The notes below the pieces were generated by a model. That model saw only the letters and a list, made by a program, of their open reading frames with translations, made no database searches and was not told where the DNA came from. Of a stretch of DNA of 64,000 nucleotides, positions 28,332-52,500 are shown piece after piece. Within the stretch, counting starts at the first letter, position 1; the number at the start of each line of letters is the position of its first letter. Origin of the DNA: a virus; IMG/VR virus record IMGVR_UViG_3300012685_000001, positions 1 to 64,000 of that record; one strand, given 5' to 3'. Both the position numbers and the translations under genes were made by a program.

Positions 28332-28709
28332 TTAGCGGTAACCGCCCTCCCAAAGAAGGCCCTTACTTGATAGATGACGTGCTAATTCTACAGGAACTAC
28401 ATACTTGCGTCCCTCTTCAAAATCATAGTGCTTTCCAGCACCGAAAGTAACTTGTTCCAAAGTTACCAATGGAATAATAGTGCGAGTAGGGGTCTCAAGT
28501 TCGATGTCCTTACTTACTTCCAAGTCATCAACTACTACTGAAGTAGCAGGACCGCTGGAATAATCAACAGGAACGTCATTGATTTCATTCTGTACTTCTG
28601 CCATCATGGCAATTTCTTTAGCACGTTCTTTCAGTTCAGCTTGATTTTCCCTCTGAAGCTGCTCAGTTGTAATACCGGTCAAATCTCCGGGACGCTTACG
28701 TGGTGGCAT
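28332..28709 (-). CDS. Hypothetical protein downstream of capsid gene
   Basis: ORF with GGAG RBS. Confidence 0.7.
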   Translation of the reverse strand: MPPRKRPGDLTGITTEQLQRENQAELKERAKEIAMMAEVQNEINDVPVDYSSGPATSVVVDDLEVSKDIELETPTRTIIPLVTLEQVTFGAGKHYDFEEGRKYVVPVELARHLSSKGLLWEGGYR

Positions 28710-43423: not shown

Positions 43424-44479
43424 TTACTCTGCCTCAGGCTTTACCAGATCATACACCTTGGAAGTAATGTCCTTGTCATCAAGGATCATGAACATGAAAC
43501 CAGGGTACTGTGTGTCCTTCACTCTAATAGCAAAATCCTTTCTGGTCCAGCCGTCTGGGTACTTGAAACTATTCCACATATCCAATTTTACTAGCCAATA
43601 ATCGTGCTCAATATTATTTCGAGTAATCCTGAAATCAATGGATATCTCTGAATATGTATCCTTCAGCCAGTCATGCCACTCATCAGGAATGATGCTACAC
43701 ATCTGCTCAAGCGTCTTGCCTGCCTTTATGTTCTCCCAGACACGACGCTTCGTCAAACCGGTAACGATCTTGTGCAGAGCAATATAGTCAGCCTGCTTGA
43801 TCTTCAATCGGTACTCATTGTGCGGAAACGATACTACGTAGCCCTCAGCGTTCACCCTTTGCGGAGCCTCCAGAGCCTCTCTGAGCGTCTTATAGCGGAA
43901 GGTAGTAGTCCTGGGCCCCCGCCACTCTACAAGGCCCTCAGGAGGAAGCGTATAACCTTCCTCGATATCCCGGGCACCCAATAGAACCAGATCATCGAAA
44001 CCGTAGTTCAGAACGATACGGTTCTCTGGATAGATGATCTCAAACATATAAGTGAGATCAATACCAGCATCCTCTATGAACTTCTTATAACGGCTCTTCA
44101 GAAGATACGTGGCGTGAATTGCTTGATCCGAAGCAAAGGAACCTCGGGTAGCAATTCCCCAGTCTGCCTTGTACTCCCAGTAGATACCAAGAGAACCGTC
44201 CATCTTATCGGTAATAGTCGCAGGAGAATCAAGATACTGATTGTCCTCATCAGAATAGTTGTGGAACTTGTCGAATGGCCGCGCAATTACCTTGTCGTGA
44301 GAATTCACAATAAGACCACGGCACTGAGATGTTACATCATTCCACAGATTGTCATACTGAGCTTTCTCTGTATAGTTCAGGATAGAAAGATCATGGTAAG
44401 GATGAGTCTGCTCACGTACGTAACCTTCAGTCTTCAATTCCAAGTAGTCTTTGATCGAGAACAGATCATACAGATACAT
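43424..44479 (-). CDS. RNA ligase, T4 Rnl1 family
   Basis: CRGLI, ARPFDKFHN, KMDGSL adenylation motif, ATRGSF, FEIIYP.NRIV, EGYV, KIK..DY. Confidence 0.92.
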   Translation of the reverse strand: MYLYDLFSIKDYLELKTEGYVREQTHPYHDLSILNYTEKAQYDNLWNDVTSQCRGLIVNSHDKVIARPFDKFHNYSDEDNQYLDSPATITDKMDGSLGIYWEYKADWGIATRGSFASDQAIHATYLLKSRYKKFIEDAGIDLTYMFEIIYPENRIVLNYGFDDLVLLGARDIEEGYTLPPEGLVEWRGPRTTTFRYKTLREALEAPQRVNAEGYVVSFPHNEYRLKIKQADYIALHKIVTGLTKRRVWENIKAGKTLEQMCSIIPDEWHDWLKDTYSEISIDFRITRNNIEHDYWLVKLDMWNSFKYPDGWTRKDFAIRVKDTQYPGFMFMILDDKDITSKVYDLVKPEAE

Positions 44480-46677: not shown

Positions 46678-46866
46678 TTATCTCTTATCAAGAGACAAGT
46701 ACATTGCGGGGAACTTAATGCTCTGTCCGCCATCCTCATAAATAAGGATGTATTTCTTGGTGAAGAATCCCACACGTTGAATAACTGTTCCTCGACGGCC
46801 CGTAAAAGGTCCACGAGTAATAACTATAGGATCACCTATAGAGTATACAATTTCATGTTTACCCAT
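46678..46866 (-). CDS. KOW-motif small protein
   Basis: IGDPIVITRGPFTGRRGTVI. Confidence 0.75.
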   Translation of the reverse strand: MGKHEIVYSIGDPIVITRGPFTGRRGTVIQRVGFFTKKYILIYEDGGQSIKFPAMYLSLDKR

Positions 46867-46997: not shown

Positions 46998-47027
46998 TTA
47001 TTTTCCTTAGTTCCTAATTATATAATT

Positions 47028-47109
47028 GTGGAGCACTGGAGATTCGAACTCCAGTCTCAGCCCGTCCGACGTGCGGCTTTAAAGGCTGATCGACACCAAT
47101 TTGTGCCCC
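47028..47109 (-). ncRNA. Minimal tmRNA-like RNA (tRNA-like domain only)
   Basis: GGGGCAC/GTGCTCC-A acceptor with G3:U70; stemless D-loop AAATTGGTGTCGA; CAGCC/GGCTG helix; GAC then T arm TGGAG-TTCGAAT-CTCCA. Confidence 0.75.
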
Positions 47110-47117
47110 ATAGGAAG

Positions 47118-47181
47118 TACAGAAGTATGCTGCCATTACACCATACCCGGGCTGACGGAATCGAACCGTTCCTCTTCTATA
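47118..47181 (-). ncRNA. Circularly permuted tRNA-like element
   Basis: TATAGAAG, T arm, short linker, D arm TGGTGTAATGGCAGCAT, CTTCTGTA; T arm precedes D arm and the ends pair over 8 bp. Confidence 0.6.
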
Positions 47182-47186
47182 CAACG

Positions 47187-47668: not shown

Positions 47669-47746
47669 CGCCTCAGACAGGATTCGAACCTGCATACTCC
47701 GTTACCCTTTTAATGACCGGTTAGAAGCCGGGGGGGATACTAAGGC
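47669..47746 (-). tRNA. D-arm-less tRNA-Arg(TCT)-like RNA
   Basis: Normal acceptor and T arm; CCGG-CT-TCT-AA-CCGG nested in TCC/GGA and CCC/GGG stems; no 5' D loop. Confidence 0.65.
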
Positions 47747-50103: not shown

Positions 50104-50150
50104 ATGTCCCGGTTCTTTCTTATAGGGGAACCGCGCTACTAAGACCCAAG

Positions 50151-50222
50151 TGGAGCTACGGGGACTCGAACCCCGAATTGAAGTATGCAAAACTTCCGTG
50201 TTACCGTTCACACTATAGCCCC
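50151..50222 (-). tRNA. tRNA-Ala(TGC)
   Basis: GAAGT-TT-TGC-AT-ACTTC; G3:U70. Confidence 0.9.
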
Positions 50223-50277: not shown

Positions 50278-51858
50278 TTACTTTGCAACCCAAGGCCACG
50301 TCTGTGATATTCCAGCTTCTATCAAAGGAATCATCTGGAAACCCTTGTCAGTCAGTCCACCAAAGGTGTGACGCTTCTTGGAACCAGATTCACTCTGGCC
50401 AACAGCATACCCTCCGAGGTTCCAGGTGTAGACAGGAACATTAGCAGGTACAGAAGCAACAGGATCTCCACCGTAACCATTGTACTGCTCATCAGTGATG
50501 ATCACAATACGGTCATGGTTCTTGAAGTTGCCGTTGACTGCTCCACGGGTATCAGTTCCACCCATGCTCTTGAACTTACTCAGCATAGGAAGAACAGACT
50601 GACCCTTACGGAAAGAAACTGTTTCGAAAGAAGGTCCACGCCATGCGTCACCAAACTGTACCAGATCTGCATTTTCAGCACGAAGTGCTAGTGCTGAACC
50701 AAAGATAGCAGCCGTGTCAGCTCTGTCAAGTCCCTGAGTTCCTCCGTTAGAAGTAAACATGGAACCAGAACGGTCAACCAGAACCAGTGTACGTCCCTTC
50801 AGAGAAGGCACATTGCTCAGAGAAGCCTCAAGGGCAGTCTCAAGCGCCGCAGCGATCTGAAGAGTATCCTTGTTGGCCTGGTAAGCAGCAAGGAATCGGA
50901 AAGGGAACTGCTTACTCTTGGCAACCTGCGCAGGATCAGCAAGTTTTGCAAGAACATTCTGCATCACTGGGACACTAATTCGGGCATCCTGGAAGTTCCG
51001 CAAGTTTCGAAGAAGTGCCATATATCCCATGGAAGGAATAACAGCTTCCCAGGCAACAGCATCCATAGGACCCTGAAGCCATCCGGAAAGAGCTTCCCAA
51101 GTCATTCCAGCATTCTTCATACGAGTAGCGTCCAGAAGGCCAGTAACTATTGCGCCCTTACGGTTTTCTACTGGAATACGCATTATATACTTTCGCGTAT
51201 TAATCATCTCTAGTACGCCTGGAACAATCTCTACATTTCCATAACGACTAGCAAGAGCGTACTTGAACAACTGCTCCTGAATCTCGTTATCAGGCTTAGG
51301 GTGAGTCAACTGAAGAACATCCGCGAAACGGTATCCCACAGAAGTATCGTACTTAAGAAGACTGTACTCGTTATACAACTTCTTGGCACCATCCGCAACA
51401 CCCTTCTTAAGGAAGGATGGGAAGTTCTTCCCGTACTTGGACTCGTAATAAGCCAGCACCTCACCAGGCTCATCAGCACGAGCCATAGAAGCGGCTACAA
51501 GGCCCCTAGGAGTCCCATTCAGCTGTCCTGAGTCCCAAAGGGCCTTGGCACCTTCTACACCCGCTACAATCGCCGCTGAACGCATGAAGGCAGAGTTACG
51601 AAGCCAATAGACGAAACCGGCAAACCAGAATGAATTAGTTACCGCTACTTCGGCACACAACTTGGAGAAACGGTCATCACGGCTCTTGGCGTTCTCATAG
51701 AACGTATCCTGACCGACAAAGTTGGAAACTGCTAGCAAGAACAACTCAGATTGCTTAGTGCGCACAAAACCTGCCTTGAAGTCAGCATTCAGTGCTGCCT
51801 GAGTAGTCTTGACAGGAGAAGTAGTTCCTGTCTTCTTTACCTGATTGAACTTGCCCAT
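50278..51858 (-). CDS. rsr: Ro60 / TROVE-domain RNA-binding protein with C-terminal vWA domain
   Basis: ELFLLAV..TFYE, RADEP, DVLQL.HPKP, TWEAL, MGYMALLRNLRN, SKQFPFRF, MIDAS DRSGSM, GGT, IITDEQ. Confidence 0.93.
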   Translation of the reverse strand: MGKFNQVKKTGTTSPVKTTQAALNADFKAGFVRTKQSELFLLAVSNFVGQDTFYENAKSRDDRFSKLCAEVAVTNSFWFAGFVYWLRNSAFMRSAAIVAGVEGAKALWDSGQLNGTPRGLVAASMARADEPGEVLAYYESKYGKNFPSFLKKGVADGAKKLYNEYSLLKYDTSVGYRFADVLQLTHPKPDNEIQEQLFKYALASRYGNVEIVPGVLEMINTRKYIMRIPVENRKGAIVTGLLDATRMKNAGMTWEALSGWLQGPMDAVAWEAVIPSMGYMALLRNLRNFQDARISVPVMQNVLAKLADPAQVAKSKQFPFRFLAAYQANKDTLQIAAALETALEASLSNVPSLKGRTLVLVDRSGSMFTSNGGTQGLDRADTAAIFGSALALRAENADLVQFGDAWRGPSFETVSFRKGQSVLPMLSKFKSMGGTDTRGAVNGNFKNHDRIVIITDEQYNGYGGDPVASVPANVPVYTWNLGGYAVGQSESGSKKRHTFGGLTDKGFQMIPLIEAGISQTWPWVAK

Positions 51859-52359: not shown

Positions 52360-52500
52360 GACAACTAGAAAGAATCGATAAAAGTGCTTTATATACCGCT
52401 GCTCTGCCTCTGAGCTATCAACCATAGAATTGGCTGAGAAGGATTCGAACCTTCGTCACGCGGTTCCCTGTGAAGTAACTCTTATCTTCGCATCGCTGTC
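52360..52500 (-). ncRNA. yrlA: YrlA-type Y RNA A (Ro-binding stem plus full permuted tRNA-like domain)
   Basis: Terminal stem; ACCGC..T arm GAAGG-TTCGAAT-CCTTC; closed acceptor TCAGCCA/TGGTTGA; D arm TAGCTCAGAGGCAGAGC; GCGGT; next to Ro60. Confidence 0.85.

Follow-up and report, generated by a model that had tools for sequence, protein, structure and literature searches.

The locus and the architecture of the RNA gene

The DNA analysed here (the window) is a stretch of 64,000 nucleotides, positions 1 to 64,000 of the IMG/VR record IMGVR_UViG_3300012685_000001; it lies in a virus record of 113,467 bp with direct terminal repeats, the nearest cultured relatives of which are the Streptomyces phages pSt2308, GiJojo, LuckySocke, Alone3 and BRock, with genomes of 112-116 kb. 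The minus strand carries an array of 28 tRNA genes and, straight after the tRNA-Val(UAC) gene of this array, the small RNA gene at 47029-47109 (minus strand) with which this report is concerned. An earlier note had described an element of 82 nt at 47028-47109; the minus strand reads as described there, but the gene is 81 nt long and extends from G1 at 47109 to the discriminator A at 47029, the C at 47028 being one base past the discriminator. The CCA end is not encoded in the gene. These boundaries are those of the match to the family covariance model introduced below (R1), and the minimum free energy fold agrees with them.

The acceptor stem has seven base pairs, formed by GGGGCAC (47103-47109, G3 at 47107) and GUGCUCC (47030-47036, U70 at 47032) with all seven positions paired, and the presence of G1:C72, G2:C71, G3:U70 and A73 makes it an acceptor of the alanine type, as the note had said. 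It is followed by the D loop AAAUUGGUGUCGAU (47089-47102), which is stemless, 14 nt long and furnished with the GG and UCGA motifs; this is the length of the D loop in E. coli tmRNA, and G13, G14, U17, C18, G19 and A20 stand in the same register. The P2 helix consists of CAGCCU (47083-47088) and GGGCUG (47058-47063), six base pairs found by the minimum free energy fold, by R1 and by covariation, to which the junction pair U21:A53 is added. The helix suspected in the note is thus real and covaries in the family, but it encloses 19 nt and not about 21: a UUAAAG bulge, an inner hairpin of three base pairs (CCG-CACGU-CGG, 47066-47076), for which covariation was observed and which appears as a stub of the tmRNA helix P2b, and finally AC. 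The GAC expected before the T arm is found in the AGAC linker at 47054-47057 (the family consensus is GGAC), and the T arm UGGAG-UUCGAAU-CUCCA (47037-47053) is canonical, with stem pairs that covary in the family. In E. coli tmRNA the contacts of SmpB include U17, G19 and A334 of the GAC (PMC8363625). The minimum free energy of the RNA is -31 kcal/mol (z = -2.47 against shuffled sequences), and the fold reproduces the proposed structure.

The 81-nt RNA thus contains the tRNA-like domain (TLD) in full, which ends in a short P2 hairpin, and has no coding part. The pseudoknots PK1-PK4 are absent, the 19 nt inside P2 leaving no room for them, and no mRNA-like domain with resume codon, tag frame and stop codon is present in these 81 nt, in accordance with the initial description. 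That description also pointed to a frame of six codons in the loop (GCC GCA CGU CGG ACG GGC UGA) and doubted its use. The frame exists and was considered as a tag, and it was rejected: of 75 relatives, 60 lack any stop codon in this register over the whole RNA, and 28 have as their first codon ACC, which is not an alanine codon.

Detection by general search tools

In the window ARAGORN made no call at 47029-47109, and Rfam at its gathering thresholds reported nothing there. A permissive Rfam search at the site returned a single match, to tRNA-Sec (RF01852), with 23.9 bits and an E value of 0.015 (threshold 47 bits). When the tmRNA model RF00023 (threshold 47 bits) was run over the whole 113-kb genome the window copy was not listed, and the mitochondrial tmRNA model RF02544 had no match in the whole genome at E values up to 10.

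Over the threshold of RF00023 are the syntenic copies of pSt2308 (61.0 bits) and GiJojo (57.4 bits), those of three phage contigs around 111 kb in length (65.5, 60.4 and 55.4 bits) and two further members of the family (62.6 and 58 bits). Each of these matches extends over model positions 1-374 and leaves out about 296 of the core, so that the earlier prediction, a match of the tmRNA model to both ends only, holds for pSt2308, GiJojo and the others but not for the window copy, which is unlisted. When one relative (L191) is aligned to RF00023, its A-rich bulge falls on the tmRNA bulge that follows P2a and its inner helix on the opening pairs of the helix after that, which gives the molecule the appearance of a tmRNA with the core excised and the cut end capped. 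The element of Mycobacterium phage DS6A also falls below the Rfam tmRNA threshold, like the window copy, and these two represent divergent ends of the family. Among the 98 loci listed, an ARAGORN call overlapped the mini-tmRNA in five, and each of these calls was a spurious longer tmRNA or tRNA. For annotation this means that canonical copies are caught by the Rfam tmRNA model, and divergent ones such as the window copy are missed.

Conservation and covariation in the family

Two pattern scans of IMG/VR were carried out, one with a pattern of the inner motif and one with the motifs of the TLD only, followed by a filter for pairing of the acceptor and T stems. Together they yielded, in addition to the window copy, at least 98 different sequences with lengths of 67-95 nt, that is at least 99 in all, which with the syntenic copies in pSt2308 and GiJojo answers the proposal of the note that related phages be searched. 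The covariance model R1 was built from 38 other copies, the window copy and the DS6A element being left out. It scores the window copy at 53.7 bits (E 5.7e-11) and the DS6A element at 60.4 bits; the phage's own tRNA-Ala reaches 24.8 bits and other tRNAs at most 17 bits, and the sole strong match in the 113-kb genome is the window copy at 47029-47109. With a family score of this size (E about 1e-10) the mini-tmRNA is beyond a chance fold.

Across the four helices, where pairing of the acceptor and T stems was imposed by the search filter and P2 and the inner hairpin were free of it, 97% of the positions are paired in the clean alignment of 38 sequences as against 71% in shuffles, and 96.8% of the cells as against 66.7% when the 99 copies listed are aligned to the model. 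In the smaller alignment every P2 pair changes on both sides. In the larger one the covariation score is 0.70 against 0.13 in shuffles, changes on both sides occur at 18 of the 22 pairs, all seven P2 pairs included, and sliding the partner columns by one to three positions lowers the pairing to 40-52%. The P2 segment taken alone forms a mean of 5.8 contiguous terminal base pairs (0.57 after shuffling), and in the inner hairpin of the 99 copies listed all three pairs change on both sides with 96% of the cells paired.

Conservation of single nucleotides is equally marked. G1:C72, G2:C71, G3:U70 and A73 are invariant in all 99 copies listed, and no search pattern demanded them; acceptor pairs 4-7 covary in the same copies, with four or five pair types each. 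According to the family alignments the UCGA of the D loop and the AC of the GAC linker are invariant and the GG is conserved in at least 90%. The last base of the D loop forms a pair with the first base of the GAC linker, C:G in 96 copies, U:A in two (the window copy and L113) and U:G in one. The window copy is divergent in having GUCGAU where the family has UUCGAC, AGAC for GGAC and an A:U pair for G:C in the T stem.

Similar RNAs of 70-81 nt were also observed in bacterial assemblies: in a Saccharibacteria MAG (L291), in two cyanobacterial assemblies (L260 and L356) and in L250, L287, L329, L335 and L346. The scan of genome contigs returned mostly the 3' ends of ordinary full tmRNAs and unrelated matches, with about a dozen true mini forms in bacterial assemblies. 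These may belong to prophages, to binned phage contigs or, in the case of Saccharibacteria, to a reduced cellular tmRNA.

Genomic surroundings

The counterparts in pSt2308 and GiJojo are 78 nt long and are located just downstream of tRNA-Val(UAC). Their acceptors, GGGGCUG/CAGCUCC and GGGUCUG/CAGAUCC respectively, differ by compensatory changes and keep G3:U70. The order tRNA-Val, mini-tmRNA and a small KOW-like ORF is common to the window, pSt2308 and GiJojo; the ORF lies at 46678-46866 in the window and is 39% identical to its counterpart in pSt2308; the position of the RNA gene has thus been maintained in spite of divergence in the genes next to it. The mini-tmRNA is unannotated in pSt2308, LuckySocke and BRock, and in GiJojo it was overwritten by a protein call. 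CDS 44 of GiJojo (L010, 3516-3758, minus strand), a 'hypothetical protein', opens with an ATG that precedes the mini-tmRNA by one base, and its frame crosses the entire RNA gene; most likely the real KOW-like ORF of GiJojo has as its start codon the GTG that follows directly on the mini-tmRNA.

A normal tRNA-Ala(UGC) gene is present at 50150-50222, separate from the mini-tmRNA, as had been pointed out in the note. The tRNA array contains another gene that was missed by ARAGORN, at 47669-47746 (minus strand), scoring 28.3 bits with the Rfam tRNA model (threshold 29). This tRNA-like gene has 4 nt instead of a D arm, an anticodon loop CUUCUAA (UCU, Arg) and an extra arm of 19 nt; tRNA stretches with about 86% identity to it, unannotated or under various names, occur in 131-kb Streptomyces phages, and in GiJojo a normal tRNA-Arg(tct) is annotated in the same part of the array.

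The stretch that abuts the 5' end of the mini-tmRNA (47110-47185, minus strand) is tRNA-like in permuted order: AGAAG, AGGA, a T-arm-like ACGG-UUCGAUU-CCGU, the linker CAGCCCGGG, a D-arm-like GUGU-AAUGGCA-GCAU and CUUCU, with a closing stem of 9 bp between GUAUAGAAG and CUUCUGUAC. This order is that of the YrlA tRNA mimic. No Rfam match was obtained for 47110-47185, its fold has no energy signal (z = 0.24), and the stretch is absent from the same place in pSt2308 and GiJojo. Streptomyces phage Wofford (L358) has a similar stretch, with two compensatory changes in the closing stem, at about 395-450 ahead of tRNA-Gly, and a pattern scan for a broad family of 47110-47185 gave the Wofford-type contig only. 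In positions 1-390 of the same Wofford contig the CDS of an HNH endonuclease ends right before a lone T arm, the 3' strand of an acceptor and CCA (CUCAG-UUCGAUU-CUGAG GGGGACCA); here a homing-endonuclease insertion seems to have split a tRNA gene or to have become joined to one.

Further genes connected with RNA are found around the mini-tmRNA. An RNA ligase of the T4 Rnl1 type (PF09511, 51 bits) is encoded at 43424-44479 (minus strand) at the edge of the tRNA array, and the same gene occupies this place in pSt2308 and GiJojo. Ligases of this family repair the damage done by anticodon nucleases. The island also contains a thioredoxin gene and a gene for a Ro60-type protein (50278-51858, minus strand; TROVE 62.7 bits and a VWA domain), and about 540 nt upstream of the latter a YrlA-like Y-RNA tRNA mimic can be recognised at 52397-52462 (minus strand; RF02553, 31.4 bits, E 3e-5, threshold 69), consisting of a T arm, a closed acceptor hairpin and a D arm. 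Pairs of Ro60 and Y RNA have been described from phages before (Chen et al. 2014, PMC4201824).

These surroundings are not shared by the family as a whole. When the ORFs within 2.5 kb of the 99 copies listed were clustered no constant protein neighbour emerged, no ORF family being present in more than 11 loci; the contexts of these copies vary from capsid operons to helicase genes, and at 74 of the 98 loci listed there is no tRNA within 500 nt. One phage lineage (L217 and its relatives, about 10 of the 99 copies listed) carries the mini-tmRNA on the same strand between the genes of the prohead protease and the major capsid protein, hence inside a late structural operon rather than near tRNAs. 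Since no neighbour is constant the island does not define the family, and it may colour the use of the mini-tmRNA in the phage of the window.

Identity and authenticity of the element

On the basis of sequence comparison, the reading of 47029-47109 as a putative tRNA-like domain of tmRNA without the mRNA-like domain, homologous to the DS6A element, is supported; it rests on the DS6A homology, on syntenic orthologues that RF00023 accepts from end to end, and on the invariant alanine identity and SmpB-contact nucleotides. The note had proposed this identity, and in this respect it was right. Its statement that no phage case was known to be described did not survive, because Hudson, Lau and Williams (2014) list a 'Mycobacterium phage DS6A (TLD only)' tmRNA (PMC4131195) and the tmRNA database paper of 2025 repeats the DS6A case, adding CDS-less plastid forms beside the jakobid mitochondrial one (PMC11915505). 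Our full-text literature search found no description of the mini-tmRNA family beyond DS6A. The type itself is therefore already known, and the window copy is a divergent, unannotated addition to the TLD-only tmRNAs of the DS6A type.

Other identities were considered. The tRNA model RF00005 (29 bits or more), tRNA-Ala included, was discarded as there was no ARAGORN or Rfam call and as the D and anticodon stems are not conserved in the relatives; tRNA-Sec (RF01852, with a D stem of 6 bp and the anticodon UCA) was rejected on account of the score given above, of many non-pairs and of the loop CUUUAAA; and mitochondrial tmRNA (RF02544) had no match in the genome. That the gene should nevertheless be an unusual tRNA (an intron-bearing or decayed tRNA-Ala, a tRNA-Sec-like molecule or a suppressor with a UUA anticodon and a long variable arm) is hardly credible. 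The tRNA-Sec match was the best that Rfam offered, CUUUAAA can be read as an anticodon loop and a D stem of 4 bp, AUUG/CGAU, can be drawn by eye in the window copy and combined with an intron or an enlarged anticodon loop, but that match is far under its threshold, the putative anticodon stem is mismatched and not conserved, the D stem is missing from the relatives, covariation backs P2 and the inner hairpin instead, and the orthologues pass the tmRNA model and not the tRNA model. It is likewise very improbable that we are dealing with a dead remnant without function, either the decaying pseudogene of a full-length phage tmRNA or a fragment of host ssrA left at an att site. Such an origin could be suspected because the window copy is off the consensus at several conserved positions and under the Rfam tmRNA threshold, and because full-length phage tmRNAs are known, such as the 407-nt gene of Mycobacterium phage Kumao. 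Against it, no stem is disrupted and the departures come with compensating changes (the junction is U:A for C:G), the G3:U70, A73, UCGA and GAC motifs are kept, the position is conserved next to a protein that has drifted to 39% identity, the acceptor stem has both its halves, which an att fragment would not, and an identical copy with different flanks exists in a second metagenome.

This second copy bears on authenticity as well. In the probable source metagenome the stretch is present in one identical contig. An unrelated freshwater metagenome of 2025 contains a low-depth contig of 151 nt that equals 47026-47111 with zero differences or gaps and has flanks that do not match, which counts to some degree against an assembly artefact; together with the conservation of the element in isolates it excludes the deletion of a full tmRNA during assembly, which the note had named as a possible source of error.

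Proposed function

Trans-translation is the main system of bacteria for the rescue of ribosomes and for the tagging of proteins. When a virus possesses no more of tmRNA than the half that binds SmpB and accepts alanine, a deliberate manipulation of this system during infection suggests itself, and we consider it fairly probable, judging from the conserved nucleotides, that the TLD-only tmRNA of the phage suppresses or bypasses the tagging of the host. The molecule would have arisen from a tmRNA that lost everything between the strands of P2b, namely its pseudoknots, its tag frame and its stop codon. Probably it carries alanine, forms a complex with host SmpB and contends with the tmRNA of the host for stalled ribosomes, with the result that tagging does not take place.

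In the mechanism that we envisage the RNA would be transcribed with the minus-strand tRNA array, trimmed by the tRNA-processing enzymes of the host and supplied with CCA by the host. Host AlaRS would then charge it with alanine through G3:U70 and A73, and host SmpB would be bound through the elbow nucleotides of UCGA and GAC, both steps being suggested by the invariance of these nucleotides. In the phage genome no SmpB gene was found, so the mini-tmRNA would have to use the SmpB of the host. The complex of alanyl-TLD, SmpB and EF-Tu might enter ribosomes stalled on non-stop mRNAs, compete there with host tmRNA and accept the nascent chain. As no resume codon, tag or stop codon would be offered, the degradation tag of the host would not be added, and SmpB would at the same time be drawn off tmRNA. 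Release of the peptidyl-TLD would rely on host factors. Since the determinants of charging are invariant while the rest of the acceptor drifts, the charged form probably matters, and a charged form would be expected to go to stalled ribosomes and to take the peptide without supplying a tag or a stop. A point against the suppression or bypass of tagging is that the phage encodes neither a Pth nor an ArfB-type release factor by which a ribosome holding peptidyl-TLD could be freed: Pth, an RF-1/ArfB-type domain and a CCA-adding enzyme were searched for in the phage genome and none was found. The divergent motifs of the window copy and its score below the Rfam threshold imply that its binding of SmpB could be weakened.

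Earlier experiments have a bearing on several of these steps. According to PMC4131195 and PMC11915505, which credit the result to Mao et al. 2009, an RNA like that of DS6A strongly inhibits tmRNA in E. coli whether it can be charged or not, perhaps by titrating SmpB; entry into the ribosome is consequently not required for inhibition, at least under overexpression. Peptidyl transfer in vitro by a TLD-only tmRNA is attributed to Shimizu and Ueda 2006 in PMC3895274, and a truncated tmRNA was crystallised with SmpB and EF-Tu on the ribosome (Neubauer 2012, as cited in PMC8363625). In jakobid mitochondria CDS-less tmRNAs persist alongside SmpB (PMC11915505).

Two other functions have to be weighed against the suppression of tagging. 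The RNA could be a pure sponge by which host SmpB is sequestered off the ribosome, alanylation and ribosome entry playing no part. The invariant SmpB-contact nucleotides would be in harmony with this, but a sponge that stays uncharged gives no reason for the AlaRS identity set, nor for an intact acceptor/T helix of the EF-Tu type; the first three acceptor pairs and A73 are retained in all 99 divergent copies listed in which pairs 4-7 change freely, and this alternative is accordingly quite improbable. In the second alternative the RNA would be beneficial and would add to the capacity for rescue: ribosomes stalled on phage mRNAs or on mRNAs damaged by nucleases would be freed at the cost of one added alanine, no mark for proteolysis would be placed, and inhibition would not be the aim. 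Besides the conserved alanine identity it can call on the acceptance of peptides by TLD-only RNA in vitro (PMC3895274), on the retention of CDS-less tmRNAs with SmpB in jakobid mitochondria (PMC11915505) and on the location of the gene in an island of RNA maintenance, with 28 tRNAs, the T4 Rnl1-type ligase, Ro60 and the Y-RNA-like element. It leaves the freeing of the ribosome unexplained, since the RNA lacks a stop codon and the phage contributes neither a release factor nor ArfB or Pth, and the absence of tRNAs within 500 nt at 74 of the 98 loci listed makes the link to RNA repair not a general one; we regard it as unlikely, though less so than the sponge.

A wider form of the latter idea may be put forward tentatively, as a possibility somewhat on the unlikely side. 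The constancy of the alanine identity in about 100 divergent copies suggests that charging and action on the ribosome are required of these RNAs, which would then be more than SmpB sponges. The family might represent a virus-borne, tag-less trans-translation that would add a single alanine to stalled chains and pass the ribosome to the release factors of the host; in the phage of the window this would be part of an RNA-damage island (tRNAs, Rnl1-type ligase, Ro60 and Y-like RNA) that sustains translation under attack by host nucleases. The suppression or bypass of host tagging remains the reading that we prefer. The class was known from one phage, DS6A, and a single reported test in E. coli, and it now comprises at least 99 distinct phage sequences; its cultured carriers GiJojo, pSt2308, LuckySocke and BRock offer tractable phage-host pairs in which a block of tagging, tag-less rescue or both could be told apart.

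Comparison with known systems

The closest system is the DS6A element, which we located at 28478-28557 of JN698994 (tmRNA Website tmID 11587). It has 80 nt as compared with 81 in the window copy and shares with it the G3:U70/A73 acceptor, the stemless GG/UCGA D loop, the short P2, the T arm and, inside P2, the A-rich bulge with the CCGCACGCGG hairpin, of the common form CCGCACG(U)CGG. The differences are that DS6A is a temperate mycobacteriophage of 60 kb whose record annotates no tRNA or tmRNA gene, whereas the window copy stands in an array of 28 tRNAs in a Streptomyces-type soil phage of 113 kb with terminal repeats; that the DS6A linker is GCAC and its junction pair C:G, as against AGAC and U:A; and that a reported experimental test, the inhibition of E. 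coli tmRNA, exists only for the DS6A-type RNA.

With canonical tmRNA (RF00023) and full-length phage tmRNAs, such as that of Kumao (407 nt), the mini-tmRNA has in common the TLD with the nucleotides that touch SmpB, the tandem G.A junction and P2a, followed by the A-rich bulge and by the beginning of P2b; its orthologues align to both ends of the model. What it lacks is about 296 model positions, those of PK1-PK4 and of the coding part with resume codon, tag frame and stop codon, and it can therefore neither template a tag nor terminate translation. The jakobid mitochondrial tmRNA (RF02544) and the CDS-less plastid tmRNA of Mallomonadaceae are likewise natural reductions to the TLD with presumed SmpB partners (PMC11915505); they are, however, separate reductions that serve the translation of an organelle, while the viral form would rely on the SmpB of its host. 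The engineered TLD-only fragments cited in PMC3895274 and PMC8363625 have the same domain content, but they are of laboratory origin (E. coli or T. thermophilus) and not natural genes. Finally, Y RNA of the YrlA type (RF02553; PMC4201824) is also a tRNA-like non-coding RNA of the tRNA regions of actinophages, with a candidate in the same window near Ro60; in that molecule the T arm, closed acceptor hairpin and D arm are permuted and there is no free end to accept alanine, whereas the mini-tmRNA has the normal order and an open acceptor.
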